NCBI RefSeq assembly: GCF_037042905.1
Contig: NC_087250.1
Coordinates: 7,814,001 to 7,878,000, forward strand
DNA from: Lytechinus pictus
Lineage: Eukaryota
Direction: 5' to 3'
Length of the DNA stretch: 64,000 bases
A program made the translations under genes and the position numbers. The notes below the pieces were generated by a model that did no database searches, was not told the DNA's origin, and worked only from the letters and a program-made list of their open reading frames with translations. Positions 36,930-59,997 of the stretch are shown in pieces (position 1 is the stretch's first letter; each line of letters starts with the position of its first letter).

Positions 36930-36960
<31 letters not shown>

Positions 36961-37058
36961 GATAGATTGATGAATTGATTGATAGATTGATGAATAGATT
37001 GATTGATTGATAAATTGAATGATAGATTGATTGATAGATTGATTGATTGAATTGATTA
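36870..37058. repeat. (GATT)n microsatellite
   Basis: Direct reading. Confidence 0.92.
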
Positions 37059-37113
37059 ACAAATGGAATTTCTTAACCCATAGAGGTAGAGTGTCTCCAG
37101 CAAAATACCCCAA

Positions 37114-38245: not shown

Positions 38246-38949
38246 TTAAAGTATGGGAAAACCATCGGTGTGTATGAAAACCATCCCATATCTGAATATC
38301 TGTTGGCAGAAATGTACTAATTCTAAACTAAGCAGCTTAAAATAAGTATGTATACAACATTTGATCTTCATGAAGCAATGTATTCGAAAGCCAGTTAAAA
38401 AACGTAGAAGAAGAAAATTAAAAGAAAGAATGAAAATCAATTCAAACAAAAATTGAAGAAAAATAAATAAATGACTTTGGGATGAAGTGTAACTAACCAA
38501 CAGATGATGATTTTTTTTAGTATGAAACTTCTCTATGAAGGACTGTTTGAAGAGTTAAATGATTGAAAATAATAAAATCTTTAAAAAAAAAAAAATCCTC
38601 TACTTAAGCCAGTGGCTGCAAAAACCGTGTACAAAAACATAAGAAATGATTTGATTGTGATTTTTTTTGTCAGCAAAACTTTCTAAAATGTTCTGCGGTC
38701 CCTGTCAAATGATAGTTTCTTGGATGTAATAGAATTCTTCAGGAATTTTTCAATGACCAAAGTTGTTCTTAAAATTGTTCTGAGCCAATCAGATGTATGG
38801 ATTTCAGTAGTTTTTAACAAAAAACTACTTGGTTTCATGAAATGCTCCCCTGGAAGCATTTGCTTGTGCCTGAATGATGATGGTAATGTCGCCCTCTCTT
38901 GTTCACTGCCCATAGAGTTTCAACCATTTGGAGTAGGCAGAATTTGACT

Positions 38950-39330
38950 GGTTTATTTTCAGTTGGTCTTATGCCAATTCGTCAAATTACCAATTTGTCT
39001 ACTGTCTATCATTTGATCTACCATCAATTCGTCCACTATCTACATGTTCTGAATGCCATTTCGTCCAATCACCATTTGGTCTAATAACGAGTTGGTCCAA
39101 TAGCTGTTTAGATTTAGTCTAATTGGACTTAGTGATCAAAATGAAATGGATATTTGACCAAATGGTTATGAGATGAAATGGTCATAGATGAACTGGTGAT
39201 TAGACAAAGTGATGATTGGACCAAACGGTTGTTAGAGAAAATGTTGATAGACAAAATTGCATGAGACTAAATTAAGATAGACCATGTGGTGAGTTGACGA
39301 GTTGGCAGTAGACAAATCAGCAAATTGATA
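38950..39330 (+). mobile_element. Copy of the 44456-44811 element
   Basis: GGTTTATTT...GCCAATTCGTC...GAACTGGTGATTAGAC shared. Confidence 0.75.
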
Positions 39331-39470
39331 AAGTCAGGTATTAACTACAATGGAAACAAATGGATGACTACTTGTTAACTACATTGTATATCATGAAATC
39401 AACAATATATTATAAACTCATTGATCGATCAGTTTTAGCCAAATCAAATAGCACGTATCGGAGGGGGAGG

Positions 39471-40012
39471 CCGGGGGGGGGGGGGGGCACTCAGTATATA
39501 ATGCATAGTGGGTATGTGCCGCGGAGGGGACCCACATTTTTACACTCAAATTTCCGTTCCAAGGCATTGCATTTTTGTCTTATCGAGAAAAAGAACAAAG
39601 AAAGCCGCTCCAAAGCATAGCATTTTCTTATCGAGAAAAAAGAAGAAAGAAATCCGCTCCAAAGCTTCGCATATTTTCCGTTACGCCGTTCCGGTCGCAT
39701 TGATCTGCGACAATGAGCCGCAATTTTGGTGAAAAGCGGCCGCAGAGTGCTGTCCGACCATCGCCTCTGTGCTAGCGCACCCGGCGCCCTTGCCGCCGCT
39801 GCTGCATGCACGTTCCATAGGGATGCATACGCACTCACATGCAGGCGACCCGTTCCAAGGACCCCAGTTTTCACAAACATTTGTAGTTCCGAAGCCCGTC
39901 CTGAGGACCCTCCTTTTTACAATAAGCCCGCTCCTAGGCCCCCTTTTTTGTCTCGCCAGCGGCACATACCTACTACTTTTTTGGTCGAGTACCCCCCCCC
40001 CCCCCCCCCCCG
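39471..40012. mobile_element. Non-autonomous element with CCGGG-polyG / polyC-CCGGG ends
   Basis: GGGGCACTC...GGGTATGTGCCGC is mirrored by GCGGCACATACC...GAGTACCCCC. Confidence 0.75.
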
Positions 40013-40284
40013 GGGGGGGAGGCTTATATCTTTTTTTAGGAATATGGGAAATATTTCTATTCTATTTATACATTCATGCTAAACTGGCAATCTACAAAAA
40101 TAATTTAGCGATGAATGGGGACCCATTTGCAAATATCAGTCCATATGACATAAAGGGTTAATGGTCCATTTTGATTGCCCGTAGACGCGCAGGATGTCTA
40201 CCTTCTACTGAGAGTGCCCCGCCCGCCCCTTCCGATGTAAAATAAGGCCTAAGATAGCCCTATTGGTAAATTCACTGACCCTGT

Positions 40285-40892
40285 TTAAAGGGATGGTCTG
40301 GGCTGAAAATATTTATATGTAAATAAATAGAGTAAAATTCACAGAGAAAAATGCTGAAAATTTCATCGAAATCGGATAACAAATGACAAAGTTATTGAAT
40401 TTTAAAATTTATCAATATTTTGTGAAAACAGTTATATGCACATTGTCATGAATATTCATTAGGTGAGTTGATGATGTCACATTCCCACTTTCCGTTTTCT
40501 TATGTTATTACATGAACTCACAAATGTTTCATTTTTTCATACATGTGTTAATGATGTGTCTCCATTATGATGAAATAAGTTGCGGCAATAAATAACTAAT
40601 GCACTTAATCAGTTGTCAATCCCATTATTTTAGTTCTTGGTAGAAAATTTTTGAATAAACCTAATTTCATATAATAAAATACAAAAGAACATGATGACAT
40701 CATCAGCCCACTTACTGAATATTCATGAAGACGTGCTTAAAACTGTTTCACCGGAATAATGAACATCTTTTAAAAAATCCAATATCTTTGTTATTTGTTA
40801 TCCGATTTTGATCAGATTTTCAGCATTTTGCTCTGCGAATTTTACCTTATTTATTGAGATATAAATATTTCCAGCCTGGACCATCCCTTTAA
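40285..40892. mobile_element. TTAA MITE family B
   Basis: TTAA-AGGGATGGTC...GGACCATCCCT-TTAA. Confidence 0.9.
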
Positions 40893-41057
40893 ATACATCT
40901 CCAAGAGGGTTACATCCTTAAATTTTTATTGATAGCTGACATATGAATGGGGTGATTGACATTCCTTTCATATCATCTTGGTATAGGGTAGAGAGAAAGA
41001 TTAAATGTTGTGCCCCCCCCCTTGATCCACAATCCCTTCAGTCTAGAGCACACATGA

Positions 41058-41460
41058 AGGGCCGTCTTCACCAGCCCGAGTTTTCAAATTAGCGCGCTAT
41101 TTCTGATCAGGCAAATTAGCCGGATCTGATCAATCTCGAGATTATTTATAATGGAGATGCAATTATCGTGCTAGTTCGTAGGATTAATCTCGAGATTGCA
41201 ATCCGAAGTCAACTTGGGATTATTTGAAAAATAGCACACAAATTTACAAATTATCCCACTAATTCGCAAGTGCAGAAGCACTCAGGAATATTTTATTCAC
41301 GGCGTCAGACCATAATGCATCGATGTCTCGCTCAAGCAGGAATCGTCTCTTCTTGCGATGGTGGAGACAGGATTTCTTGAATCTCGAGATTAATCGCAAA
41401 GAGGGCCCATCGGACTAAAATCTCGAGATTGAGCAAACTCGGGCTGGTGCAGCACCGCCT
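41058..41460. mobile_element. MITE (CACCAGCCCGAGTTT / AAACTCGGGCTGGTG TIRs)
   Basis: Inverted ends and repeated AATCTCGAGATT palindromes. Confidence 0.7.
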
Positions 41461-41925
41461 CTGTAATTACACCCCCATTTCACTCATGAGTTAAATCATT
41501 GCTCATCAAAAAAATCATAAAAAATCAATCCCTCCATAGATTTCGTTTTAATTCTTTGACATTAATCACAATGAATAGTGCAACAAAACCAGATATGTTA
41601 ATCGGGTATTCGTCCAGCTCAAACAAATTTTAATTATAATTTCGGTCAGTTCTAGGTGAGAAAAAAGAAACTGCATTGCGGTTAATATTTAATTGAAATT
41701 AAATACAAAAATGCAGTCTAGCTCCCCCCAAAAGCCCTAATTATGAAAGAATATGAACATAGCAATGTCTTTTAATTTTATACTTTGATATACATACATT
41801 TTGTCTGTGTTTGATGAATATTATTATTTTGATCAATTAAGTCATGTGATCTTTATGCCTGTCCAGAATGCATTGGGCGCGGATAAATTATTCATGTGTG
41901 CCCTCTGGTGAAGACACTCCTCATA

Positions 41926-42402
41926 AGGTGGTTTCAGACCGCCTCGAAGTTCGTCAGTTCCAGGTATTCTCTGATCGTGAAAATTTACCCCGATCAGAAA
42001 ATACAAGGTATTTTGGTAATGTGAAAGCAAACTACGCGTAATTTCCCCGAAACAAAATACCCGCTAAATAGTAGGTACTTGGCGAAATTACGAGAACTTT
42101 CGTGGGGATTTTTCCAAGGTCGCAGGTATTTTGGCAATGTGAAAGCAATTTACGGGAACTTTTAGCCAAGCGTGTCGTTGGGCGCGGGCGCCGTGGGTGG
42201 CTGCTGGGCTAGTGGTTTTGAATCTCGCGCCTTGCCTGCTTATTAGACCATACTGCGCATGCTCCTAACTTCGGGAATTTAACCCGAAGGGTATGTTTCG
42301 TGGCGGTGTGAATGCAGGAATAATTAATGGGTATTTTTTAGCCTAAAAATGTTCTCGTAATTTAACGGGGATTCTTGTGATCGAGGCGGTTTGAAACCGC
42401 CT
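41926..42402 (+). mobile_element. Harbinger-like MITE with ATA target duplication
   Basis: ata-AGGTGGTTTCAGACCGCCTCGA...TCGAGGCGGTTTGAAACCGCCT-ata. Confidence 0.82.
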
Positions 42403-42606
42403 ATAGTCAAGCCCCTAGTTCCCCTCAGACGATACTCCATAACTTACATTCTTTTACCAATTATGATGCAATTACTATCATTGTTGTAGTCTCCTTGTCC
42501 AGGCACTTCCTTCATTTTTCATTTCAATCAGAGTCAATATGGATCTTTGTGCTGTATAGTCCATCACAGATATTGGCAGTGACAGTTCTTAGTTCTTCAA
42601 AAAAAA

Positions 42607-43007
42607 TTTAAGATAAATGCCAGTTGTGGTAACGATCTCAAAATGACTTTTTACAGAATCCAATATAATGACCACCCAAGTGTCTGTTTGTATGAATAAA
42701 AAATATGTGTCAGGATTCTGGAAGAAATTGTGTAATTGCTGAGAAATAAGCAAAATAAGCGCAGATTCGGGCACTTCCGTCGGGTCTTTATTTCAGCAAT
42801 GCTAATATACACTGTCCCATGTGTGCCTATCTGTGTTGGCGATCTTCAGTGTGATCGTTTTTCAGCTTAGATTTTATGATTTCACAAAGTTCAGTTTATG
42901 TAACTACCAGATCTAGATCCACAATGATGAAGTAATACTTAACCTTGGTTTTACAGACTTTCTCACGAAATCAGTGTTTTACTGCAACTACTTTCATTTA
43001 GCTTTAA
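42607..43007 (+). mobile_element. MITE family A
   Basis: Similar to 3941-4347; ends CATTTAGCT-TTAA. Confidence 0.82.
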
Positions 43008-43094
43008 AGTTAAGGATTCTTAAAAAGGTGGTCCTTTATGAATCGACATCGATAGTATAAAAAATGTTTTTATTAGTATCATTTCATTTTTAAA

Positions 43095-43714
43095 TTAAAG
43101 GTCAAGTCCAACCCAGAAAAATATTGATTTGAATAAATAGAGAAAAATCAAACCAGCAAAACACTGAGTATTTCATCAAAATCGGATGTAAAATAAGAAA
43201 GATGACTTTTTGAAGTTTTGCTTAATATTTTTCACAAAACAGTGATATGCATAACTCAGTGACATGCAAATGAGACAGGCAATGATGTCCATCGCTCACT
43301 AGTTCTTTTGGGTTTTTTTACTGTTTGAATTATACATTCATTTTTTTACAGATTTGACAATAAGGACCAACTTGACTGAACCATATAGTATTAAACAATG
43401 CTAATTTCACATGTTCAGGGAGGGATTAATCATTGTTTCACTTGTTAATGTGAAGAAAATAGAATATTTCATATTTCATATAATAAAATACAAAAGAAGT
43501 AGTGAGTGGATGATGTCATCGGTTTCCTCATTTGCATACCGACCAGGATGTGCATATAACTGTTTTGTGTTATTATAACTGTTTTGTAAAAATTTAAATT
43601 GTCATAACTTTCTTATTTTACATCCGATTGGGATGAAATATTCAGTGTTATGCTTGTTGGATTTTTCTCCTTTTATTCAAATCAACTTTTTGTTGGGGTA
43701 GACTTGTCCTTTAA
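43095..43714 (+). mobile_element. TTAA MITE family C (~620 bp)
   Basis: TTAA-AGGTCAAGTC...GACTTGTCCT-TTAA with long TIRs. Confidence 0.88.
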
Positions 43715-44455
43715 GAACAAAGAGAACAGACATCTGTTTCATCTTTGTTCTGCATGACCCCTGAGTATGTCAATGTTTATGTAATCCTAATTTCATGAAA
43801 TCCTGATATCTAAACCTGTACCTGAAAAGCAAGTACAATGACTGAATGCCAATATAGAACCATAATTTATGAGTAAACTTGTTTTATGGATTTATTATTG
43901 CTTGGAAAAATAGAGTCATCCAACGACGACGGAATGCCATGGTTATTGTGCTCATTTCTCAGCAATGAGGCCTACGCATTTCCGACCAGGACCAGATTCA
44001 TTTGACACATACAAACACTCGGGTGGTTATTTCATTGGATTTTGTTTAACCTTATTTTAAGAGTGTTACCACAATTGGCATTTACGTTTGATCATTCTTT
44101 TATGATGACTTTTACATATGTGTTTTAAAGGTTTACTCTCTGCTGCTAGTGTGAATGACCCTGTATGGAGTCGTTAGGGACATGCACACGAGAGAGAGTA
44201 GAACCCTTTTTTGCTGATCTGTATGTGATTGAGGAAATGCATCGTTATACGCTTGTTTAGGTGCTATCCCACCAGGCTGAAACAACTTGTTTATATTTTT
44301 TATACAAACTTGTTTAAATCTTTCAACAATATTTGTGAGACTGATAGGCTTAAACACCGTGCTTAAAATTTTAAACATCATTTGTATAATTGTGTTTAAA
44401 ACGCTGTCAAAGAAAGTGTTATATTACGATTTATAATTATTTGCTATGTCAGAAT

Positions 44456-44811
44456 GGTTTATTTCCTATTGGTCTAATGCCAATTCGTCTAATTACCAAC
44501 TCGTCTACTATAATTTAGTCTAATCGCCATTTCGTCTAATAACCAGTTGGTCCAAGAGCCATTTAGTCCATAATCCATTTTGTCTAATTGGATAAGTGTT
44601 AATTAAGCGAAATGACTGAAAAGAAAATGGGTATTAGACCAACTGGTTAGTATACCAAATGGTCATAGATGAACTGGTGATTAGACGAAGTGATTATTGG
44701 ACCAAATAGTTGTTAGACGAAATGTTGATGGGCGGAATGGCTATAGACTAAATGAAGGTAGACCATGTGATGAGTGGACGAGTTGGCAATAGACGAATTG
44801 GCAGTTTACCC
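44456..44811 (+). mobile_element. Non-autonomous element with 8-bp TSD (GTCAGAAT) and GG...CC termini
   Basis: GTCAGAAT at 44448-44455 and 44812-44819; body built from ~15-bp units in two opposed arms. Confidence 0.8.
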
Positions 44812-45594
44812 GTCAGAATACCGCTAAAAACAATCATCTGAAAGACACCAATCACTGATTTGATGGATGGTTTGGTATCATTAGCCCTGTATGAATAGGT
44901 CAAGGATGTTCCCTGCTGTGTGGGCTAGGTCAAGGGGCGCATTCACACTCTTCATATTTATCTGTGATACGATTATGATAAATCACTTGCAAGTGCATTC
45001 TGAAGCTATCTGACTTCTCACTTATCTGTAGAGTGCCCTTCGAAGGGGTGTTACCAAAACTTGACCCCCCCCCCCCAGTTTTTCATGACACCCTCTGACC
45101 CCACTTTCTAGTACCCCATTTTCCCATTCACTGGAGCATTCTCATTCTGTGATTGGTCTATCTAAAATGAATATTCATCACTGATGGTTTGATTTATTTT
45201 CTATTTTTATCCAAATCACTTCTTCATTTCAAACCGGCCAATCACAGAGTGATATTGCTGCCACAAGTGAATGAGAAATGTCTATTACAGTTGGCCACTA
45301 TGACTTAGATGTAAAATGTTTCCAAAGAATTGGTTTTATACCAGCTTGGTGTTGATGCAAGGGAAAGCTGCTTTGCTGAGTTCCTTGAACAGAAACAGAA
45401 TCATGGGGTGACAGAAAAAGTTGGGTTATGGCATGGAAACACCCACTTTCTTTTTTTTTTCTGGATGTTTTATTGGTCGTGCAACCTTTTGATAGCACCC
45501 CCCCCCCCCCTTAGTGCAAACAAAACATTGCAAATACCTGAAATAGGCCCAACCTCGGTGTAAGCCATGGTGGGATATCGATGGAGTCGGGTTA

Positions 45595-45984
45595 AGCCCA
45601 GCGCGCACTGTGCAACGCGATAGCACTGAGATCCCATTCCAACAAGTTGCCAGTCGAATCGCAGTGCAGTTGCATTGCAGGCCAGCGCACCCATAGGGCA
45701 GTTCTGCAGCGTGCTACATCTCCTGGTGCCCCTTCTCTTGTGTGTTTTCTGCGCTGCAGCAGCGCAGAAAATTGGCCATGACGTCATCGTCTCGGACCAA
45801 TCTGATTGGCTGATATTAGCAAAATCGCAGAAAGATTTGACATGTCAAATGTCTGAAATTTGGTCTGCGATCCTATTGCAACAAAGCGGGTCGCAGTTGC
45901 AGCGCGTTGTAGGTTGGCGCGCACTCTGTGATTTTGTTGCAATCGAATCTTGATGCGATCGCGTCGCATAGTGTTCGCTGGGCT
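45595..45984. mobile_element. Harbinger-like MITE, TTA TSD
   Basis: tta-AGCCCAGCG...CGCTGGGCT-tta. Confidence 0.82.
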
Positions 45985-46437
45985 TTAGGAGTTGAGTGGG
46001 CATTGAACTAGAATAAACCTTCATTCTGTTAAACAAGTCCTATTAATCAAACAACCAGTTATCGATGAGTACCAATTCTTAACTTTTACATATGGGATGA
46101 CGGGGGGGGGGGGGGGGATTTCATGAAGGGATTTCTCATTGATTTTCACAGACTAATCTGCCCTCTGCCAATCAGATGCAAGGATTTCAGTGGCTTGTAA
46201 CAGCTGTTAGTGACTGATTTGTTTCATGAAATGCACCTTGGTTATGATGAATTGATGGACAGATGTTTATAGTAGATGCTCTAAAGTGAAGTGTTTACTG
46301 GTACCAGCTTGTCTTTGTATCACTATCCCATCTCATCTGAATCAAATGTAGAATGTATTGTCATAGACAAAAGGCTTAAACTTCCAAAGGCATGCATAAA
46401 ATAAACAGTGCTTTAATAATAAACATTAGATCTATAC

Positions 46438-46660
46438 CGATGATGATGATAAGGAGGAGTAGGATAATGATGATGAGGATGACAGTGATGATGATGATGA
46501 TGATGATGATAACAGTGATGATTAAAGATGATGACAGTGGTGATTATGATGATAATGATGATGATGGTGATGATAATGATGATGATGGTGATGATAATGA
46601 TGATGATGGTGATGGTGATGATGATGATAATGATAACAATGGTAATAATAATAATATTGA
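46438..46660. repeat. (GAT)n microsatellite
   Basis: Direct reading. Confidence 0.93.
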
Positions 46661-47859
46661 TACAGGCTTGAGATCGTTTCTAAAAAAAGAAATTTAAAAG
46701 GATCCCTTTTTTTTCAAGAAATACTCTTTAGTTTTTCTCTGTAAGAATAATTTTTTAAAGAAGATTAGCATCTCTGGGATTGTATGAAGTATGAACAGGG
46801 TATTCTGTGAAACCGGCCCCTAGTGTGGTATCCTCATCGACATTGCATGATTACCAACACAGTCGCTCCCTCCTGCTTCTCAGTCGTCTGTCAATTTGGT
46901 AGGCACTCGTGTGGCTGCCCTCGTGTGGCAGCGCCGGTACAACCACGCAACGGCAGCAGCCTCCCATACATGTACATCCTCATTCAGCTTGGTCGTATGG
47001 GCCATCCGTTAAAGGGGGAAGCAATTATTTTAAATATCGACCATTCTGAATTTGGTGAGGAAAGAATGTGAATTTTAGACCATTTTGAGATGGTTTTGAT
47101 ATGATTTTCCTACTTTTCATGGGCACTTACTGTATACTCCTTTGGGAAGTACCGTTTCCTATATTTTGTGTCAAATTCATTTCTATTTTCTAATTACATG
47201 GGTTGGAGGTCTGTTTTGGGTTTTTTTTTTAAAGAATGTGAGCTCCATAACAAGTTATTAAGTGAATCCCCTTTGGAACCGCAAGCGAGAAAATACCGCC
47301 ACTGGGCAAAATGGACTTCATTTAAATTAATTGTCATCAAATGATAAAAGAAAATACTGAAAAATTGACTTAAATTTTCAACCAATGCTATGGAAATGCA
47401 AAGACAAATGAAAGTGAAATGTCTGAACAAATGAGTGGAAAGTTTGAAGTGAAATAGGAAAATATGCAATTTTGATTTTGAATGACAATGTGAACACTTC
47501 CTTGGAGACATCTAGAATTATTTTGTCCCCATCAAACTTGGCAAGGTTTTCATTTTCTCAACATCCAACCCTTATGAATGGTTCTCACCACCGCCACCAA
47601 ACCGGGGAGATCTGTCAATTCCATCCCCATGCAATTCACATGTAATGGCAAAAACACACAGAAAAGGCAATGCAGAATTCACCCACCCAATACAGATTCA
47701 CCCCCCCCCCCCCCTCCTCTTCCCCTGGAGTAAGGGGGAGGGGTGGATGTAGTGAAGGGTCGTTGGATCATGTCCTCCAACACACACACCCAACGCTCTT
47801 CCTCTCTCTCCATTTCTTTCCCTCTCTCTCTCCATACAATCTCCACAGCCTCGCTTAGA

Positions 47860-48531
47860 TCTAAACACAGGCAGGTTGGTCGGAGTTGAATAACTCAAAT
47901 TCACATTCGTTTTGGGAGCTGGTAAAGTCATATGAGTCACTTCATTCGGCAGATCAGAGTCACCTCGCGTCGTGCCGGTTTGGAGGCATTCATCGACTTC
48001 ATCCCTGTATGCAGAAGCACCGCGGCATCTCCATTTGTGACAGCAAATACCAAACAAATTTCTATAAAGAGGTTTCGGTCTGGTAACTCTCAACTCTTTA
48101 GATTAGACGAGGAATTAAACCTCCGTGTATCCATTTGTATTGTCACCGGTAGCTGTTTATGTGGAATCTTCCTTCATGATAAAAATGCTCAACAAATTCC
48201 TTGGGAGATTTTGTCTGATAACTCGCAACTTTCTATGACCAGGAATCAAATATCATTCAGAGTGTCGTCTGTCCTGTAAACTATTTTGTCTCGTGTTGCT
48301 ATTGAGGAAATTGGAGAAGCACTGTGAGACCTGTTAGAATTTCTCTGTCTCTCTCTGTCAGGAGATATTTTTCGTCTTGTTCTCATGGAATGCCATCTTC
48401 AATTGGAGCAAGTTTTATTCATAACATGCTGCAAGTATTTCTCTAGACATTAGGAACCTTGAATGGATTTAATAGCGATTCACTTGACGTGGAATAGTGA
48501 CTTTGAAAAGGTGACATCTTATTTGAAATTG
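47860..48531 (+). promoter_or_regulatory. Candidate internal promoter / non-coding first exon
   Basis: Unique sequence after C/T- and G-rich tracts, ending in a ttg|gtaagg donor; only short uORFs. Weak support. Confidence 0.3.
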
Positions 48532-48601
48532 GTAAGGATCCACGGCACTAGATTTGTGTACACATAGGAGTATAATATCTGTACCTTGAAAAAAGGGGGT
48601 A

Positions 48602-48840
48602 CACAGCAAAAACTGTGGTGTTAACCGGTGTACATAGAGGACCACACCAGTTGTTTTACACCGGTGTTAAATTGGTGGTGTTAGTTTTACAACTATAGGT
48701 GTTATTACAACACATATGGTTGTTACATTTGCACTCTTTGGTGTTATGTTCAATCTCTAGGGTGTTATTTTAACACTTCAGGGTGTGGTCCTCTATTAAC
48801 ACCAATCGGTGTCAGTATTAACACCACAGTTTTTACAGTG
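48602..48840. mobile_element. CMC/EnSpm-like MITE (CAC termini, TA flanks); related old copy at ~33069-33320
   Basis: ta-CACAGCAAAAACTGTGGTGTTAA...TAACACCACAGTTTTTACAGTG-ta. Confidence 0.8.
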
Positions 48841-49569
48841 TAGTTTTTCTTAATAAGACAAGAAACGCATATCTGCCTGTGGTGTGGGTTTAATTTGATG
48901 GGTGTCAGAATTCAGTAGGCTTACAAAAGGATAGGGATTATTGTGAAAAGTGGCCAAGGGGGAAATGTAGGTTCCAATTGCACTTGTTTTACCATGGCGA
49001 TATTAATTTCTCCATGGCTTTTCCATGTTTTGTCTCAATTTTTATGCGATCTTAGGCACCTTCATTGTGTAGTAAAATGTAGGAAATTTGAAAGAAAATA
49101 TATGAATACTGTTTTGTTATGACAAATAATAAGCATTTATTTAGTGGTGGTTTAGTAGAGGCCTCCCCCCCCCCCTTTTCTTTCTCACCTTTGTAATCTT
49201 AATTTATTAAGACATCTTTTCATTATCTCTCTAATCAAAGAACTGATGGTTTAAAATGCAAGTATATGTATGTAGGCCTACACAAATATATATGTTGTCA
49301 TTGCTGGCTTTCCATAGTTGTGGTTGATCGGATCGATCGCAACTCTTTGTAAGACGGGACCCAGATCTTGATGTATTAAGACATCATTTCGCCGTCTATC
49401 ATATCATCATCTCATCTCTCTCTAATCCAAGGACTGATGCTATCAGGTGTCACATGATCATTCCTCAACTATCGTTTCTCTCTCATCCGTGTAATGATGG
49501 AATCACCTGTATGTCATTCATCAATAGTTCCCATAAGCCTATGCACTATTCCTTTAAAGGGGACTTCAG

Positions 49570-49838
49570 GGCCCCGTCTTACAAAGAGTTGTGATTGGTC
49601 CAATCAATCGTAACTATGGAAAGCCAGCAAAGCCAACATATATAATGCATGTTTTTTTTATTTATTCTAGATATGAATGCATATCCATAAATTCCTTGAT
49701 TTCTTGACAATTTGGTGTGCTCTCCTTTGTTTACAAAGGACATTTGGCAAATTTCTTGTAGAAAAAATTATGACACTGATGGATTTCCATAGAGTTATGA
49801 TCGATTGGATCAATCATAACTCTTTGTAAGACGGGGCC
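49570..49838. mobile_element. MITE family D inserted just inside the end of a TTAAAGGGG element
   Basis: GGCCCCGTCTTACAAAGAGTT...AACTCTTTGTAAGACGGGGCC. Confidence 0.82.
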
Positions 49839-50829
49839 CATTTTACCCTGACAAAAGCTTCTTGTAAAAATAGCAGAAAAAAATAGGATTGACGGAAATC
49901 CATCAAAGATTTGAAAAGTTCTTAGAATTTTAATTTTTGATTTGTCACATCAAATGCGAGCAGCTTCTCATGTATTTGATTAAAAAAACAATGAAATTAC
50001 AAAACGGTTTTTACTGTACCCCCAGTATATTAAACAGACAAATTATTTGACACCTGCTCTTGAAAGAAGAACATTTTGTAGTCATCAGGAGCCATTAAAA
50101 AATTGAAATTTAAGCATTTTATTTGCAACAAGGGCTAAATTACCCTAAATTTGTACAGAGTAAAATGTTATAACAAGAGCTCTAGCAAATATGGTATTAG
50201 CAAAAGGGGGATACAAGGAGAGAATGGTTCACAAAATAATTTGGAATGTCAGAACGAAGAATAGGGAGAGATTAAAAAGGAGACTTTTAAAAGTTGTAAT
50301 GAAACTTCATTATAATTTACTTTTTGACAAAAAAATGTGCAGTCACCAGTACAAGCTCAGGGTCTGATGTCATAAAGACTTGTTATCATAACAAATGAAC
50401 AGTTTCTATAACTATCAGCCAATCAGTTTGAAGGATTACAGGAGCTTTTAACTTTTATTGCGAATTTTTCACATTCTAAGTTTTATTAATTGGGGGGGGG
50501 CAGAACACAATACTTGACACTGTCTGACACCGTCACACGGGTGTAAATACCGAGAAATGACCTTTGACCTATTCCAGAGTCGATGTCGCAGAGTGTCGAA
50601 CATGAATAGCCACCGTCATGCCCTGTAAGCGTATCAACGCTTTAAAACTTGAATTGAAGGTAAATAAAACAAGTAAAACATAATAAATTCAAATAGAAAC
50701 AAAGTGTGAATTTTAACTGTACAACATTAAGAGGTATGTAAATATCAATCATATACAACAAATCTATAATTGAAATAGCAAGATGATAACAGATAATTGG
50801 TCATTGCAACAGTGTACTTGTTTTGTTGA

Positions 50830-50945
50830 TTGAAAAGATACGTTTTTAGTCGGATTTCTTAATACATCAACTATGGGAGAATTCTGAATGTGGGCAGGGA
50901 GAATATTCCATGGAGCAGGGGCACACACAGAGAGAGCACGAAAGC
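50830..50945 (-). pseudogene. L2/CR1-type LINE ORF2 C-terminal relic
   Basis: Reads RALSVCAPAPWNILPAHIQNS then, frameshifted, LKTYLF. Matches the known 'RAFS..AP.LWN.LP..I......LKT.LF' tail. Confidence 0.7.
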
Positions 50946-51713
50946 ATTTTATGATTAGATGGAAGAGAGAGGGATAAGATGAGAGAGAGAGAGGAGAATA
51001 TAGGATAGATGTTGAGTCATGATGTCTCACTCGAGTTCATCAATTTCTTAGGAAGGGGGGGTGGGGGTCTCAATGTGAATCATACCATTATCTTCATTAA
51101 TATTCAACTGATGAATATGAAAATAATGAGGTAGACAATATAAGTCTTAAGTTTACTTTATTTGATTTCATATTAGTGCATGTTTGACTACCCTTATGCT
51201 TGTGGACGATGATGGTTTTTAGTCCCTACCAATTTGCAATTTTCTTGAAGACCATGTTGGGGGGCTTGAGGGAATGCTTTCATGACTAAGAAAAAATAGA
51301 AAAGGAAAGAGAGAGAAGGGTGAAATATATTGTTTTCTGAATATTATGTCAAAATCTATCACAAAATTTGATTTTTGAAGAAAATAATGTTGGATTTTTT
51401 TGCCCGCTATGTTGTTGTTGATTGGTTAATATATGTGCCAAAAGAATATATGCTTCTCTCCCAAATTTATCAATTTTGCCGGATACGCCATTTATGGCCC
51501 TGTCAAATTTTGGCTCATTATGCCACTGTGTACGAAATACTGGTAGCCAGTTCCAAGAACCTTACGGAGAGCTTATTCATTCCAACACGCCCACAACATC
51601 AATGATAGGAATTCTTAGATCAAAATAAACCCGACTGACAGCAATTTATTAACGATCATCTCATTGTCTCCAAGTAGTGTATTAGTCTGCAAGCGCAGAC
51701 TCTTATTTGACAC

Positions 51714-52297
51714 TTAAAGGGATAGTCCGGGCTGAAAATATATCTTAATACATAGAGTAGAATTCACTGAGCAAAATGCCTAAAATTTCATCAAAATCGG
51801 ATAACAAATAATACAGTTATTGAAGTTTAAAGTTTAGCAATATTTTGTGAAAACAGTCGTCATGAATATTCATTAGGTGGGCTGATGATGTCACAGCTCC
51901 ACTTTCCGTTTTCTTATTATTACATAACATCATAATTTTTTCATTATTTCATACTTGTGTGAATAATATGTCTCCCTTATAATGAAATAAGTTGCATCAA
52001 TAAATATCTAATGCACTAAATCAGTTGTCAATTCAAATTTTCTAGTTCTTGGAGGAAAAAATTTGAATAAACCTAATTTCATATAATAAAATACAAAAGA
52101 ACAAGTGGGGATGTGACATCATCAGCCCACCTAATGAATATTCATGATGACTGTTTTCACAAAATATTGCTTAACTTTAAAATTCAATAACTTTGTTATT
52201 TGTTATCCGATTTTGATGAAATTTTTGGCATTTTGCTCAGTGAATTTTACTCTATTTATTAAGCTATAACTACTTTCAGCCCGGACCATCCCTTTAA
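51714..52297. mobile_element. TTAA MITE family B, strongly palindromic
   Basis: TTAA-AGGGATAGTCCGGGCTGAAA...TTTCAGCCCGGACCATCCCT-TTAA. Confidence 0.9.
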
Positions 52298-52310
52298 AAC
52301 CAATTGTACC

Positions 52311-52351
52311 ACTCCTGAAGACGGACAGTCAACCTGCCCGAAACGTCCAGT
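52311..52351 (+). ncRNA. Minimal type I hammerhead ribozyme-like motif (Penelope-associated type), probably degenerate
   Basis: actc-CTGAAGA-c-GGACAG-tcaac-CTGCCC-GAAA-CGTC-cagt. Confidence 0.6.
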
Positions 52352-52576
52352 AACCTCTCTTCACTTCATCCGGCTACTACTCAAACTATCACTACTCAAG
52401 CCATATTCAGCTCATCTCATCTGGTTTACAGTCCTTTTCAGGACTTCACTCACTTTCAAGAAAAAAATACTTCTAATTTCCTCTTTTCATCCTTTCTCAT
52501 CTTTGCATTTAAATCTTTCTGCCTGTATTTCCTTCCCTTCTTTATATTACACATGGTGAACCGTAAACCTTTTCCA
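52312..52576 (+). mobile_element. 265-bp insertion flanked by an 11-bp direct repeat; candidate Penelope pLTR / retrozyme-like relic
   Basis: CAATTGTACCA at 52301-52311 and 52577-52587; the host element resumes afterwards. Confidence 0.65.
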
Positions 52577-53882
52577 CAATTGTACCATGTCTTCAGTGAA
52601 GACTAGACACCAAAGGCTCTGTCCATGTCAAATAAAAGCCAGCCACAGGACATAGTGATTCTAGTCTCACTACTTCAGACTTTGCTTTATGCACTGTGCG
52701 AAAATATCAGAATATTGCAGGTCAAGCAAAGAAAAGCCCTTGAAATTAACGAAATTGCCCCCGAATTTCAGCAATCGCCCCGATGTAGCAAAAAAAGAGC
52801 CCCTAATTTTTTGATTGGATCAATCGTAACTCTTTGTAAGACCGGGCCCTGAGATGTTCGGGGCAGGGGGGGTAGTTGGAAGGAAAAAAAAACACTTAGA
52901 CCAGTCTCTGAAGAAAGACAAAGAACTGTCTCTGACTCATTTTTACGGTGATGAAAGAAAGGTTTTCAAATCAGATACATTCTATCTACGATCACGTGCA
53001 TCACATAAACGCATGCAAGCAAGCAGATGGCTTCATAATTCATACCCGCCTAATCATATGGCCCCATTCAGACTGGAACATTATGCTGTATAATCAGGCA
53101 TGACATCATTTTAAAAAGTTAACGCATTTGTTGCATGCAACATCATTTCCTCTTGTGAAACAAAGAAATCCTAAATAGATATGAAAACATGGATATATGA
53201 AAACATGGATAGTGAGTATGTTCTATTTCAAACAATTACTGTCAAACGTTTGCTTGAATTTTATACAAACTAGTTGTAAGAAAAATTTCTTAGATAGTAG
53301 TACTTTGTGTTGTTTTATAACGTAGACTTTGCTTTGCATAATTTGACCTTTGATGAACGCCAAACTCAAAGCATTATTTCAGACCAGAATATGCAAGACA
53401 TGTGTTGATAACATCTAATTTGAATTTCGCCTAAGTCAAATGGATTTCTGCGGCCCCAAAACATTTGATAAAGGAAGGGTCACCTTTCGTTAAAAAAAAT
53501 CATGTGGATTGGTTTCGGTGCAGAGCTATTGTTGAAAATACACAAGGGTAAGATGTTTATGGACACTATTTGATTTTCCCCGCAAAATGTATAAGAAAAA
53601 ATTGCCATTGCAGTTTCAAAAATGTGTTGTGGTTGGGTTTCAATCAAAAATGGAATATGGATTTTTTTTTAATGGTATGAATGAAATGTACACCAGTAGA
53701 TAGCCTTATGCAATGTACTGTCTGAGCAGGCCGTGTGCTGTCTGATGGTACAGCAGTATTATGCTGAGAGCACAAAGACTTCCCCTGAGGCCATTGTGCT
53801 TCATCCGCATCATCTTCATCTGGGCGTGTGCTCTGAAGGTGGGTCTTCATCAGAACAAAGTGGTTGCGCCAGCTTAAGTACC

Positions 53883-54528
53883 GGGTGGGTGTTTCATAAA
53901 GCTGTTCGTAAGTTTAAGGGCGACTTTAAGAATGACAGGGCCCGTCTTACAAAGAGTTACGATTGATCCAATCAGTCGTAACTCTATGGAAATCCAGCGG
54001 TGTCATGATTTTTTAATGATAATAATACATGAGATTTGTATAGCGCACTTTCCATCTTGATTAGATGCTCAAGTCGCTTCAGAGCAGAACAACAAAAAAC
54101 GTTTACACATAATACATGTCTGAACAATAAGTCAATGTCTATCAAAAACACTCATATACAGGTATGCTTTCAGGTTGCCCTTGTCACTGAAGTCTGGGTT
54201 TATACAGGAAATTTGCAAAATTTCCTTTGTAAACAAAGGAGGACACACCAAATTGTCAAGAAATCAATGAATTTATGGATATGCATTCATATCTAGAATT
54301 TTTTTTGAACAAACATGCATTTTATATGTTGACTTTGCTGGCTTTCCATAGTTGCGATCGATCAGATTAATCGCAACTCTTTGGAAGATGGGCCCCTGGT
54401 GAACCTTTCTTGCGTGCTTAATAATCACCAATGAACATATAATTGTGAACATCATTTACCACAAGAAAGGATCACCAGTCGTTCTTACAGTCGCTCTGAA
54501 CTTACAAACAGTTTTATGAAACACCCCC
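53883..54528. mobile_element. Family E MITE (GGGTGTTTCATAAA TIRs) containing family D (53938-54395), which contains an L2 3' relic (~54015-54197, minus strand)
   Basis: Inverted ends; host halves rejoin on removal of the insert; relic reads KGNLKAYL plus a GTGCGCTATACAAAT tail. Confidence 0.75.
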
Positions 54529-54790
54529 GTTCTCTTTGATGTTATCCAGAAGACGCTAAATCAGTAATGTTCGCACTCTTCTGTGGAAAGCGCAGAACAG
54601 GCCGCTGAATGAGGTGTTAGAATCCTCTGAAGGTAGCCTATAATCTATGTTTTGTCTTTCCCGTTATGAGTCTGATGCGGCAAGAATATTGTCATTGCTG
54701 ATACGCTAAAAGTGAGCGATACATCTGATGCTGCAAGACTTCAAAAGTATTAAGTAAGACAAGAAGATATAGATATATATACATATAATA

Positions 54791-55022
54791 CACTCTGAAT
54801 TCCAAGGATTTAAAATAAATCCAGATCAGCTGTGAATAGTGACCAGCCGAATATTAGATTTAGATTTAAACCATGTTGATTTAGATATAAATCTAACAGA
54901 TTTGAATTTAAATCTTTTGAGATTTAAAAGTTAATCTTTAAGATTTAAAATAAATTCAAAATTCGGCTGGTCACTATTCACAGCCGATCTGGATTTATTT
55001 TAGATCCTTGGAGTTTAGAGTG
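54791..55022. mobile_element. Near-perfect palindromic MITE (CACTCT termini)
   Basis: ~60-bp TIRs: AAATCCAGATCAGCTGTGAATAGTGACCAGCCGAAT / ATTCGGCTGGTCACTATTCACAGCCGATCTGGATTT. Confidence 0.85.
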
Positions 55023-55785
55023 TGCAACAGAAAATAGGCTCAATTTTCTCTGATTGGGTTAATTCATCGGACCAGCAGCAGCAGGCTAAACGCTAATTTT
55101 CTCCTGGTGAAGACTCCTCTTATGATGAAAGCACCCATTCTCCATCCGCTCAGCCTTGATGCCTGGCGCTCACATCAAACACGTGAAAGGCTATTGTTAT
55201 ATTTTCATGCTCAGCCAAGAATCTTCTGATAGCATCACTGCCTTTGTCCGCGTACTGTATCGAGGTCAGATGAAGTCGTGTCGGGAGAAAACTGCGCAGT
55301 CATCTCCTTCATTACTGTCATATACTCTAGCATCAGTATTACCTAAGTCTCCTTTAGTTCAACATCACTCGCCAGTCATGTGCTGATCAAAAATGTTTTG
55401 GTCGCCATTTAGTTAAAAGTTTGCTCATAGTGATACATCCAAGTGGCATACTTCATTCTTCGCTCGTTATTTTTGAAGAGGTGGAATTGGATATCATTGT
55501 AGTGAGTTTGCTTTGACTCTCGGTATCATGTCATGTCAGTGCAAGAACGCCCTTAACAAACACATGTTCGCGCACCCCATTGGTGCAGAAACACCCTCAC
55601 GCAATGTGCTTACAGTTTATGCGTGCTGTCAAGAGTGATTTTGAGCGCATCGTGGTGTTAAAAGCGTTCTTGCACCGACACAACTATCTGTTGTCAGTGT
55701 GATGCATGTATTGGTGAATGTTGAGATGTTGTTCAAAATTTGAAAGGAAGCCAAGCAAACTGATTCAAATCTAACATCCCTAATT

Positions 55786-56095
55786 TGGAGTGTAATGTGG
55801 CCCAGTGGACTAGTCTTCAGACTTTGAAACAGTAGGTCATGGGTTCGAATCCCAGCCATGGCGTAATTCCTTCAGAGCAAGAAATTTATCCCCATTGTGT
55901 TGCACTCAACCCAGGTGAGGTAAATGGGTACCTGCTGGAAAGTAAAACCTTGAAATGCGTGTATGCTGTAAGTGATCACTGCCACCAAGCTAAAGCCGGG
56001 GTAATACTTATAATAACCAAGTCCTTTGGAAGCGCATAGAGACATTATAATGTGATATGCGCTATACAAGAACTGTTTATTTTTTTTAATTGTTA
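55786..56095 (+). mobile_element. tRNA-derived SINE, same family as 24480
   Basis: TGGCCCAGTGG, GGTTCGAATCCCAGCCATGGCGTAATT and a shared body. Confidence 0.85.
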
Positions 56096-56354
56096 TCATC
56101 CCTTTTCGTACTTCCATGTCCTGTCTGTCATCAATGCCCTGTAACATAAAGCCCAGCGATGGATCCAGGGGCTAATTTCCACGATTGATTCCATTGTGTT
56201 TTGTGTATGATCAATCGTAAAAATCAGCCCGTGATTAATCGCTAAGATTTTTGTAATGGGGGCCCGAGCATGTAACATCTCTATGTAGCAAATCAAGGTA
56301 ATTTTCTTTCAGATTGTACTAATAAACCATCTTTCTCTTCTTTTTCTTCCGCAG

Positions 56355-56394
56355 ATTTTGGCGAGAACATAGATTCCATCAACAACGACAGAAG
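56355..56394 (+). CDS. 40-nt exon (DFGENIDSINNDR)
   Basis: Strong acceptor ctttttcttccgcag|, donor aag|gtatgc. Phase 1 in and phase 2 out link exon 26748 to exon 59240 with no stop. Confidence 0.7.
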
Positions 56395-57664
56395 GTATGC
56401 ATGATATCACTTCCACCCCTTTCATGAATAATTTTTATACATATTTTTAAATTATATTATGGTTGAAGGCACACCTTATGTCTATTCCATGATCCGATTA
56501 TGGAACAAATCACATTATTCTCATTTTCTGATAATGGAAAGTATCTTTTTTATTTGAGGTTCAAAATAACTAAGTATACTATTATCACAATTTTAGATGA
56601 TTACAATTCTTTGTTTTGGAGTCAAGGCCAAATTTATTTCAAATCGCAGCCAGTCGTACGATTGCTATGCCATCATTATAAATAGATACTTTTTATTCTA
56701 ATAAGGATGATAGAATGGTCACAGGTTTGGACATAGGTATTTGTTCGGTGATGTAGAACATTACGCAGTATGATATTTCATGAATTCCATGGTTCAATAT
56801 TAGCCTCAAATTTTACTTTTATTCTAAAATCGGGTCACAGACCAATCGTAAGGTGTGCGTTGGCCTTTACATTAAACCAAATTTCAGACTTCAGGCCATG
56901 GAGTTTTGAGTTTGAAATCAATTTTCAAATATCTGTAAAACTATGTGTAAAGGGAAGATAAAACACACTGTAGTAGGAGTATTTCATGAATAGTTCTGAC
57001 AGTGATTTTGACTACTAATTTACTCTTAGCCAATCAGATGCAAGGATTTCAGTAGCTTATAACAATATATGGTGAAGATCACTGACTATTCATTTCATAA
57101 AAAGCTCCTCCATTCTTTCATGGATAAAGATGAACTCATCCCCCTATCATTTGTTCTTGAAAAAAAAAAGGAATAAAATGGAAAGCAATTTGGGGGCGTG
57201 AACTCAAGCATGCTATATAAACACCAAGTAATGGATGCCACGTCGGATGCAATTATATATGCCCTTTTTATCAGGGAGTAAACTCAATTCTTTGTTTATA
57301 CATCAACAGGATTATGTCATTTGGTATTAGAATCCTATGCAATATGATGAATATAATGATATCCTTCTGCGCGGGGCACCGGAGGGGAGGGGAGAGGGGG
57401 GGCACTGTCAGTACAAGGTGGACACCATCGTTGTCAAGAGAAGCACTCAAAAAGGCTTGTTTTTCACAGCCAGGCGATATATGTGGTACATTGAAAAGAG
57501 TACAAACTGTACTTTCAACAGCCCAGTGCACATACATAGTACTGTACATGTAGGGTGTGGAATAGGATATTCTGCATTTGGATGATTGTAATTGTATCAT
57601 TTTTAACTTGTAAACTGAATGTAATTCAGCCTATGGGCTGCTATGATCAGTGCATAATACCATA

Positions 57665-58285
<621 letters not shown>

Positions 58286-58978
58286 GTATTTCCTACTATC
58301 ATAGAAATGGAATATATAAGGCATTGTTTAGCATGGAAATTGGAAAACCATAAAAAAGCTTATAAAGGATACTCTGTTATGGCTCGGTGATCAAAGGATG
58401 ATTACTTGTCTAGGGACCATTCTGAAAGTCCAAGAACGAATATGGTGTCTGCTTTCTAATGACAGTGGCCCCCGGGGGCTATGCTATAAGGTGCATGGTC
58501 GATTGTGCGCTTTGCATTCATGCGCAAAATATTAATCACCCTATACATGTAGATGAATGATTAGCACCTGCAGGGCTAAATTGTTGTTCTTCGGCTTAAT
58601 ATCATATCAACTGGGGGTGTATCCTGGATTTAAGTGAGGAGAGGGCCCTATTTTTAAAAAAATGAGGGGAAAAAATGGAGAACAAAAAACACATGCAAGG
58701 TTATCAAGACTTGGAGGGAGCAGCTTCTTATCAAACATTTGTTAACTAGCAAAAAAATATCTAAAGTAGAAAAAATAAAATACAACTAAAATAGTGTGGG
58801 AGCATGGAGGGGGGGGGTGGGTCTGTGCCTGACACCAACTTGAAGAATGTAATTTTTGTCTTGAGTCAATAGGCGTATAATTCCTTTATGGTAACATTTT
58901 CTACCATCATGTTTGATTATGTTAGTCCCAAAATTATGATTTGGTGTGGAAAGGATCCACCAATCTTATAATATGAAA

Positions 58979-59195
58979 GGAGGCGCGATAGCTCAGTCGG
59001 TAGAGCGGGGATTCGTATTCCGGTGACCCGGGTTCGATTCCCACTTGGTGCGCTAGTGCCCTTTGGTAAGGCATTTATCCTCAGTACCAGGTCCTTCAGA
59101 GAGGACCTTAAGCCGTCGGTCCTCTGGTTGCTTGCTTACAAGCATTCATGCTTTCTTAGCAATCAGGTAAGAAATCACCACCAATCACCACCATA
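58979..59195 (+). mobile_element. tRNA-derived SINE, second family
   Basis: A-box TAGCTCAGTCGG and B-box GGTTCGATTCC, followed by a non-tRNA body (GTGCCCTTTGGTAAGGCATTT...) and a CACCAC tail. Confidence 0.8.
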
Positions 59196-59239
59196 TAATG
59201 TTTCTGATTATTTGTTTTGTTATTATGATTAATTTTCAG

Positions 59240-59958
59240 TATGGAAGGAAGTACTATAGAATCACCCAGACTAGTAGAAGCACCGATCTCTGCCTCGATG
59301 AACCAATCAGAAGAGAGCGCCCCGCCCAGTTTGATCCGTTCCTCAGACACACCCGAAGAATCAATGCAAGTAGAAGGAGGAACGAGCTCGGTCAAGTCAA
59401 GATTTGAAAGCGGAGACTTCCAAAATTCCACCCCTGCCAGCATAGCCACCAAGTCCATCAATATATACGACGCGCCTGCGGAGAAGGGCGTTGCAGAGAA
59501 CACTCCCGTGCGGAAGGAGGACATTTTCCATGCGGACGAAGCGCAGGAGGAGGTGAAGACCTCATCGGACGGGATCGGGAAGTTCAAGAGTATGTTTGAG
59601 GTGGGTGGAGTGACAAATCTAGAGGCCAAGACCAGTCGCGACCCTGTCAACGTCGGATCCCTCGCCGAGTATGAAAACACCACCGAGGGTCACGTAGCGG
59701 AGAGCACGCCGGTCATCAGAGACGATGTCATCAGGAGCTCGGATACATCGGAGGACCCTGGCATTAAGAGAGGCCTCTCGAAATCACTCAGGAATCGCTT
59801 CGAGACGGAGAGGATTTCAAACATTGAGGAGAAGCCAAGGGAAAAGATCGAGATCAGTAGGCCGGAAGAAAGGAGGGTTTATCAGCCTCCGCAGAAGCCG
59901 AAGCGTGAGGATGTCGTCAATGCAGAGTCTACGGCTGAGGATCCTGGGATCAAGTCAG
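59240..59958 (+). CDS. Large coding exon; acidic Ser/Glu-rich repeats (MEGSTIESPRL...EDPGIKS)
   Basis: Acceptor aattttcag|, donor cag|gttcgt; 239-codon GC-rich open frame; phase 1 out. Confidence 0.9.
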
Positions 59959-59997
59959 GTTCGTTCGAGCTTCTCTTGATTCATTTTACTCCTGCAC

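Follow-up and report, generated by a model that had tools for sequence, protein, structure and literature searches.

Probable Penelope-like element tail copy with a minimal hammerhead motif, and a histone-type stem-loop module behind it, in Lytechinus pictus

The DNA analysed here (the window) is a stretch of 64,000 nucleotides from the sea urchin Lytechinus pictus (assembly GCF_037042905.1, contig NC_087250.1, forward-strand positions 7,814,001 to 7,878,000). It contains a 265-bp insert that is very probably a dead-on-arrival tail copy of a Penelope-like element (PLE) and carries the minimal hammerhead motif of its family. The insert belongs to a dispersed family, has the architecture of a PLE insertion, is linked through longer relatives to reverse transcriptase and GIY-YIG frames, and bears a motif that is conserved and covaries between families. 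Behind the hammerhead lies a hairpin with a short downstream motif of histone type, and such a module is present in three PLE lineages. The hammerhead insert is an echinoderm example of a well-described class, and as such of a known kind; the histone-type module is the more useful lead.

The insert and its target-site duplication

The sequence CAATTGTACCA occurs exactly twice in the 64-kb window, once on each side of the insert (Table 1), against a mean of 0.04 occurrences in shuffled sequence and no case of two matches in 100 shuffles. The order of the letters is caattgtacca / CTCCTGAAGACGGACAGTCAACCTGCCCGAAACGTCCAGT ... CCTTTTCCA / caattgtacca. At its 5' end the insert shows CUGAAGA, a 6-bp hairpin and GAAACGUC, the letters after the left repeat being CTCC / CTGAAGA / C / GGACAG / TCAAC / CTGCCC / GAAACGTC / CAGT. 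The last base of the left repeat is also the A of ACTC (52311), which leaves an ambiguity of 1-2 bases as to where the duplication stops and the element starts. The pattern CTGANGA-N(8-35)-GAAACGTC has a single match in the window (52315-52347) and none in 100 shuffles. In the window copy, GGACAG/CTGCCC is paired at five of six positions, with one A.C, and ACTC/CAGT at three of four. An earlier note, made from the letters of the window, had described the exact 11-bp repeat around the insert, a minimal hammerhead at its start and a hairpin with one mismatch; all three are borne out, down to the letters as written there.

Two plus-strand stop-free frames of 95-98 codons cross the insert (52263-52606). 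The stretch is C/T-rich and the family contains indels, and these frames are for this reason taken as chance.

A dispersed family linked to coding Penelope-like elements

The copies were sought in the window's own echinoderm assembly of ~811 Mb, where the best 40 of 875 first-look candidates were scored and gave 57 matches; candidate counts, here and below, are rough first-look numbers. The insert is thus a member of a family with hundreds of genomic copies, and the scored copies are 91-95% identical to it over nearly its full length. Thirty copies, the window copy included, were cut out as loci and aligned, a set biased towards the best-scoring ones. Their column majority reads ACTC-CTGAAGA-C-GGACAG-TCAAC-CTGCCC-GAAACGTC-GAGT, with the CUGANGA and GAAA cores intact in at least 20 of the 30 copies when counted per column. 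The base after the predicted cut site is G in 21 copies, A in seven (a CpG-type change) and C in two, one of them the window copy. With a majority GAGU in place of the CAGU of the window, the family restores the 4-bp helix I. The earlier note had placed the flanking actc/cagt one substitution away from a perfect stem I and had suggested comparing the insert with the genome to see whether a consensus restores the pairing; both points hold, since the majority GUC/GAGU pairs with ACUC and the insert is multi-copy.

The window copy differs from the column majority at 10 of 265 positions, 10 being also the value of the median copy. Of these differences, one (at 52348) falls within the 41-nt motif, against a chance expectation of 1.5. 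The minimum-energy fold of an intact copy (L016) consists of stem I and stem II (-8.8 kcal/mol); the window copy folds otherwise (-6.1 kcal/mol), its core CUG pairing with CAG. Judged from these letters, the hammerhead of the window is most likely inert, the change from G to C at 52348 unpairing the base pair beside the cut site. The further suggestion that the broken stem I is what makes the insert tolerable to its host finds no support: the change is one of ten in a copy that has decayed about neutrally. Family RNA reads cross the cleavage site with no reported pile-up of read ends, and minimal hammerheads of this kind are reported to be inactive as monomers (PMC4209133).

Nine of the 30 copies continue upstream past the hammerhead, and the 696 nt just upstream give 78 first-look candidates against 875 for the tail. 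L044, L047, L048, L050 and L053 run upstream into GIY-YIG coding sequence, and L044 extends into most of the reverse transcriptase. A sister lineage, ~80% identical in the endonuclease-coding end, has open frames. In the autonomous copy L058, positions 3482-5866 form a frame of 794 codons that matches RVT_1 with 45.1 bits (cutoff 29.6) and GIY-YIG with 22.2 bits, just under the cutoff of 22.6. An identical 41-nt hammerhead lies ~220 nt past its stop codon, and the remaining 3' untranslated region (UTR) is ~69% identical to that of the short family. L058 is itself 5'-truncated, with a 12-bp repeat around it and a 23-nt inverted piece at its start. PLE frames are many in this genome and fall into at least three classes of identity to L058 (95-100%, ~55% and ~40%). 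The attribution of the insert to a Penelope-type retroelement, proposed in the same note together with a search for adjoining GIY-YIG and reverse transcriptase frames, is thereby supported: the family is multi-copy, bears the PLE insertion signature, and both its longer copies and the sister family adjoin such frames.

On contig C10 (~11884864-11903405), seven PLE open frames follow each other at intervals of ~2.8 kb, the first four on one strand and the next three on the opposite one. This cluster is a tandem/inverted array of the lineage ~55% identical to L058.

Conservation of the hammerhead across lineages

Conservation within one young family is uninformative, and lineages were for this reason compared with each other. 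The pattern CTGANGA-N(14-28)-GAAACGTC matches at 772 places in the genome, and its reversed control at 26. Eighteen unlike-looking matches were picked by eye among the first 100 of the 772, and pairs were counted in 17 distinct motifs from at least six families, which serve as an illustration rather than a census. The pairs were counted by position, as MAFFT set stem II of family A out of register. Pairs 1-4 of helix II hold in 17, 16, 15 and 17 of the 17 motifs, with 3-4 pair types at positions 2-4; pairs 1 and 2 of helix I hold in 14/17 and 15/17, and pairs 3 and 4 in 9/17 and 6/17. The extra base after A9 and the G10.1-C11.1 pair are kept. The covariation that had been proposed as a check on the core is accordingly present, in the form of compensatory stem changes between families. 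As far as sequence comparison within one genome can tell, the hammerhead is held constant while the surrounding UTR drifts.

Two or three hammerhead motifs were found within ~120 nt at C1:38997406-38997526 and at several other places, in part on opposite strands with 10-60 nt between them and in part as two motifs of the same strand at a distance of 48 nt. These clusters are junctions of head-to-head truncated copies, and a dimer could obtain its second motif only there.

A histone-type stem-loop module in three lineages

The hairpin behind the hammerhead has the shape and loop of the histone 3' stem-loop (Table 1). The Rfam model Histone3 (RF00032) matches positions 52425-52469 over its whole length, scoring 19 bits (E=0.015) where the gathering score is 34. 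Rfam accepts no PLE version of this module, lineage D (L102) reaching 16.2 bits against 34 and lineage B giving nothing at E<=1. In the histone genes of this genome, the arrangement is GGCYCT-TTTC-AGRGCC, a spacer of 10-11 nt and CAAGAAAGA; it was found at 908 places against 0 in the control, including tandem arrays on contig C57. We take this 9-mer to be the U7-binding downstream element, the analysis showing only its constant position after histone stem-loops.

The PLE versions are as follows. In the autonomous lineage A (L058 ~6217-6250) the same hairpin as in the window is followed after 5 nt by an exact CAAGAAAGA, and in the short A family by CAAGAAA(A)GA 11 nt after the hairpin. Lineage B (L098/L099 43-90) has GGTCCT-TTTC-AGGACC, a 10-nt spacer and CAAGAAAGA. 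Lineage D (L102/L103 39-85) has AGTTCT-TTTC-AGAGCT, also with a 10-nt spacer and CAAGAAAGA; its stem is preceded by a histone-like AAC and followed by AACA or ACCA. Between these three lineages the stems vary by compensatory changes while the UUUC loop and the 9-mer are fixed, and the spacing is 10-11 nt except in autonomous A. Lineage C is without the module. The composite of GAAACGTC, 6-30 nt, TTTCAG, 13-16 nt and CAAGAAAGA gave 304 matches against 0 in the control. The looser pattern CTTTTCAG, 8-16 nt and CAAGAAAGA gave 2032 against 1, that is ~1,100 beyond the 908 histone-type places, and nearly all of its first 100 listed matches are of PLE kinds.

We tentatively propose from these sequence patterns that sea-urchin PLEs may carry a working histone pre-mRNA 3' end signal behind their hammerhead, made of a stem-loop for SLBP and CAAGAAAGA at histone spacing, a proposal that we hold somewhat more apt to fail than to stand. 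Two points go against a strictly histone-like function: the 5-nt spacer sits in the very lineage that has open frames, and genomic copies extend past the module, so that the template RNA cannot be the processed form. If the proposal is true, part of the PLE RNA would be cut and handled as histone mRNA, without polyadenylation, and would be stable or translated alongside histone messages (in S phase, eggs and cleavage-stage embryos), the unprocessed read-through RNA serving as the template for copying. A sense intronic copy could moreover end host transcripts early, and this would be a likelier burden on the host than the hammerhead. To our knowledge, the histone route is the only non-polyadenylating mRNA 3' end pathway of animals. 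A working module would mean that a retroelement borrows this pathway, which would give a testable answer on its RNA ends and on the timing of its expression, and that the histone processing machinery faces hundreds of dispersed decoy sites competing for it.

A search with the Rfam U7 family was negative both here and in the control genomes, and a pattern for a U7-type motif matched as often as its reversed control did (29 vs 29). In three of the pattern's matches (C8:31431456, C8:35706257 and C15:14530213), TCTTTCTTG, the complement of CAAGAAAGA, is followed within 0-4 nt by AATTTATCTAG. From their letters, these are possible U7 small nuclear RNA genes.

Architecture and formation of the insertion

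Of the 30 loci, 13 lie between exact direct repeats of 10-13 bp, against 22 of 870 mismatched flank pairs; besides the window copy, 12 of 29 copies have such a repeat. Nine long copies fall outside this scoring, as their 5' ends lie beyond the flank used. An inverted 5'-truncated copy is present at most 150 nt upstream in 13 of the 30 copies, mostly abutting the 5' end, and the window copy has none. With an inverted piece present, the duplication encloses the whole composite, as in L030 (12 bp), L023 (13 bp), L017 and L022. The 3' ends form two classes, ~0-5 nt and ~36-43 nt past the end of the window copy. An extension of ~38-42 bp past the usual 3' end occurs in 10 of the 30 direct copies and is absent from the window copy; in composites it lies on the inverted piece (reference positions 301-310), the direct copy ending at +1 to +5. 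The 5' ends are likewise non-random, 21 of the 30 copies that reach the hammerhead starting within ~10 nt (about -2 to +8) of its 5' edge. Head-to-tail arrays were absent among the 57 matches from the best 40 of 875 candidates, which comprised only single copies and inverted pairs.

We also considered that the right-hand duplication might be a remnant of the PLE tail, since GATTGTAC occurs in the autonomous lineage's tail and ATTGTAC sites are occupied by two further copies. This was rejected as the main reading because the 11 bases match on both sides while the element has drifted, and because repeats of the same length bracket other copies. ATTGTAC is common to the window target CAATTGTACCA, to the targets of L008 and L004 (..GATTGTACATT..) and to the tail of the autonomous lineage (L058 ~6361-6375). 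The endonuclease may prefer tail-like target sites, as described for Drosophila Penelope (PMC11167929).

From published PLE biochemistry, we infer how the insertion would have arisen. The reverse transcriptase/GIY-YIG endonuclease of a PLE would have cut the intron DNA by staggered nicks, giving the 11-bp duplication. Synthesis of cDNA would have started at the inner of two start sites near the RNA's 3' end, leaving out the tail, and would have halted, or exhausted its template, at the hammerhead's 5' edge. Two such internal start sites for reverse transcription would account for the optional tail (PMC11167929). The resulting copy would carry the 3' module in the order minimal type I hammerhead, histone-like hairpin with CAAGAAA motif, and terminal motif. 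As the insert is without coding capacity, it cannot move by itself. Like described PLE hammerheads, that of the family would cut only with the help of a second copy or of the element's protein.

The clustering of 5' ends allows for a refinement of this explanation, which keeps the 3' signals recognised by the PLE protein and dispenses with random 5' truncation of a long RNA. Here the unit of ~265-305 bp would be a non-autonomous element, its short RNA starting at or just before the hammerhead (for example from a promoter in a pseudo-long terminal repeat, pseudo-LTR) and being copied in trans by the PLE protein. Besides the 21 of 30 query-covering copies that begin about -2 to +8 of one point, the excess of tail candidates over those of the 696 nt upstream (875 vs 78) is in favour, and a preprint (bioRxiv 10.64898/2026.07.22.740005), in the part considered here, derives animal hammerhead short repeats from PLE pseudo-LTRs. 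However, the 5' ends scatter over ~10 nt and are often joined to an inverted piece like truncated PLE insertions, the stable stem II hairpin could stall the reverse transcriptase at this place, and the candidate counts are only first-look numbers. We regard such a unit as possible and, on balance, doubtful.

RNA reads over the family

Three raw-read runs depleted of ribosomal RNA (X21-X23) and one cDNA run were mapped to positions 51900-53100 at 90% likeness. In all four runs the depth is zero over the unique flanks (52720-52801 and 52884-53100), and at this sampling the locus of the window was therefore not observed as RNA. The insert itself is covered by tens to ~180 reads. These carry the family letter at all ten window-specific positions (at 52348, 141 of 143 first-mate-on-plus reads of X21 have G) and therefore derive from other copies. 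From 52351 to 52596, first-mate-on-plus reads outnumber first-mate-on-minus reads ~3-6 to 1 in X21-X23, and the cDNA run is balanced; this difference argues for real strand-biased RNA and not for DNA carry-over. About one fifth of the family RNA reads in X21-X23 lack one A at 52460. In all four runs the depth drops to 0.3-0.5 between bins 52392-52432 and 52474-52514, with no reported pile-up of ends.

At 52811-52852, ~40 bases have a depth of ~1,900-3,500 in all four runs. Thousands of reads run from there into unlike sequence on both sides, which identifies a fragment of a very abundant transcribed repeat; no tRNA was found at 52811-52852.

Weighing of the reading and its remaining alternatives

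Several observations weigh against the insert being a PLE tail with its family hammerhead. The model search suggested in the earlier note as a check came out negative: Rfam reports no hammerhead in the window at gathering thresholds and none in 52201-52700 even at E<=10. Rfam is blind to the motif. This is the minimal form, without helix III. The clustered 5' edge lies ~36 nt upstream of the predicted cut and is not explained by plain random truncation. Family reads cross the predicted cut site, and no place with many molecule starts or ends is reported in the four runs. Random-primed libraries seldom capture ribozyme cleavage ends. If the libraries are of the common dUTP kind, the dominant RNA would be antisense to the ribozyme strand. 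Finally, the 17 motifs of the covariation set were, as said, chosen by eye.

The remaining alternatives account for less. A non-LTR retrozyme, that is, a tandem repeat whose transcripts self-cleave, circularise and return to DNA, would share with the insert a size of ~300 nt, a type I hammerhead and long target duplications like those of animal retrozymes (PMC7229834, as far as the part considered goes). This retrozyme-like reading, already raised in the earlier note, is very unlikely: head-to-tail arrays are lacking among the 57 matches, and the motif is the minimal PLE form, without helix III and with no closed loop 1, unlike canonical retrozyme hammerheads. The ends of the copies are fixed and not permuted, and no back-joint within 52312-52576, as expected of a unit-length circle, was found among the joints listed (beyond which there were 121 further joints). 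Less probable still is exaptation of the insert as an intronic ribozyme or RNA element regulating the host LIM-domain gene. Its sense orientation in an intron would fit, but the window copy has decayed as far as its relatives have (10 differences, the median being 10 as well), with a broken stem I and a decayed CAAGAAAGA-like motif, and the RNA reads over the insert come from other copies, with the unique flanks at zero depth. That a core of only ~14 fixed bases, unscored by Rfam, should match by chance inside an unrelated repeat is hardly credible in view of the 772 genomic matches against 26 reversed, the compensatory changes between families, the identity of the motif across lineages with flanks ~69% alike and its constant position after reverse transcriptase/GIY-YIG frames.

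Host gene and neighbourhood

The best protein matches of the surrounding exons are starfish LIM-domain proteins (36-39% identity). Exons on the plus strand flank the insert, which by this homology would lie in sense orientation in an intron of ~32 kb of a LIM-domain gene, in agreement with the placement in a host intron given before.

The 5' flank of the insert (~52140-52297) belongs to another short repeat, which has 3264 first-look candidates, a likeness of 95-98% between copies and an end in ...CCCGGACCATCCCTTTAA. It ends ~3 nt before the duplication, the PLE tail having landed 3 nt beyond. Two matches per locus suggest terminal inverted repeats and a TTAA-type target, as in a DNA transposon resembling miniature inverted-repeat transposable elements. 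As this flank is a high-copy repeat, a genome search with it yielded no unfilled paralogous site. Further downstream, a trinucleotide repeat of ~0.8 kb (57603-58390) lies ~0.9 kb upstream of the exon at ~59277 and is open in every frame over long runs of V, S, L, T or Y.

Table 1 Features of the insert and of its host gene, in positions of the window
Feature	Position	Strand	Basis or remark
Left copy of the target-site duplication, 11 bp, CAATTGTACCA	52301..52311	.	Last A doubles as first base of stem I
Insert, 265 bp, PLE 3'-terminal module without the ~40-bp tail and without inverted partner	52312..52576	+	Full-length family matches, mapped boundaries
Right copy of the target-site duplication, CAATTGTACCA	52577..52587	.	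Exact repeat
Minimal type I hammerhead motif	52311..52351	+	Letters, pattern match, 30-copy alignment, pair counts
Stem I 5' strand, ACUC	52311-52314	+	Hammerhead numbering: helix I
Core CUGAAGA	52315-52321	+	Hammerhead positions 3-9
Bulged extra C	52322	+	After A9
Stem II, GGACAG / CUGCCC, loop 52329-52333	52323-52328 / 52334-52339	+	Helix II
Core GAAA	52340-52343	+	GAA is hammerhead positions 12-14
Palindromic ACGU, no helix III	52343-52346	+	Hammerhead positions 15.1, 15.2, 16.2, 16.1
C17, predicted cut between 52347 and 52348	52347	+	Hammerhead numbering
Stem I 3' strand, CAGU; 52348 is C in the window, G in the family	52348-52351	+	30-copy alignment
Hairpin AGTCCT-TTTC-AGGACT, 6-bp stem, 4-nt loop, histone 3' stem-loop shape and loop	52430..52445	+	Sub-threshold Rfam match, lineage comparison
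CAAGAAAAAAA, decayed CAAGAAAGA, 11 nt after the hairpin; family majority G at 52465	52457..52467	+	Histone-gene and lineage comparison
Terminal motif CACATGGTGAACCGTAAACC, kept between the short family and autonomous PLEs; tailless copies end 7-12 nt past it	52550..52569	+	Alignment, 3' ends
Host LIM-domain gene context, exon to exon around the insert	26607..59987	+	Homology-inferred gene model
Host exons	23000-23149, 26607-26789, ~59277-59987, 60717-61082	+	tblastn of starfish proteins on the window

Comparison with known systems

Titles and abstract openings in the literature searched gave nothing related to hammerhead ribozymes in sea urchin retrotransposons, and none tying PLEs or other retrotransposons to the histone stem-loop or downstream element; the nearest work, by its abstract, concerns U7 and human LTR12. 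Minimal hammerheads in the pseudo-LTRs of metazoan PLEs were described by Cervera and De la Pena in 2014 (PMC4209133), single motifs being without detectable cleavage and dimers cleaving weakly. The motif described here agrees with theirs in the CUGANGA and GAAA cores, H17 after U16.1, the extra base between A9 and 10.1 and G10.1-C11.1. It also agrees in a helix II of 6 bp (range 6-8), a helix I of 4 bp (range 4-5), the palindromic ACGU (15.2-16.2) and the lack of helix III, as well as in occurring mostly as single dispersed copies with some close inverted pairs, and in several covarying families per genome. It differs in the histone-like hairpin and CAAGAAAGA motif after the hammerhead. Echinoderms are not named in the main text of that paper, and its supplement may list echinoderm motifs.

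Frangieh et al. 2024 (PMC11167929) report a PLE hammerhead that cuts only with the protein of the element, and whose cut site shows no ends in RNA-seq. Craig et al. 2021 (PMC8557442, in the part considered) describe endonuclease-positive PLEs as having an inverted 5'-truncated partner together with a tail of 30-40 bp, which is often confined to one end. The family shares with such insertions the heavy 5' truncation, the abutting inverted partner, the tail at one end, target-site duplications of ~10-13 bp, a hammerhead near the 3' end and the lack of RNA-seq read ends at the cut site, whereas the window copy is of the simplest form, lacking both tail and inverted partner. Neither PMC11167929 nor the part of PMC8557442 considered describes a clustering of 5' ends at the hammerhead edge.

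With animal non-LTR retrozymes (PMC7229834 and bioRxiv 10.64898/2026.07.22.740005, both within the parts considered), the insert has in common a non-coding unit of ~300 nt and a type I hammerhead. It differs in that no tandem arrays were seen, the hammerhead is minimal and not canonical, and no evidence of circular RNA was found. The preprint, within the same limits, also reports exclusion from introns in vertebrates, and the window copy is intronic. By the features tested here the insert is not a retrozyme, and a broken stem is not needed to explain its tolerance by the host.

Compared with the histone signal of RF00032, the PLE module has the same 6-bp stem and UUUC loop, with CAAGAAAGA at a spacing of 10 nt in lineages B and D and 11 nt in the short A family. 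It differs from that signal in that the first pair of the stem is A-U in two PLE lineages, the 5' flank of lineage B is not A-rich, and the module lies inside the element and not at its 3' end.

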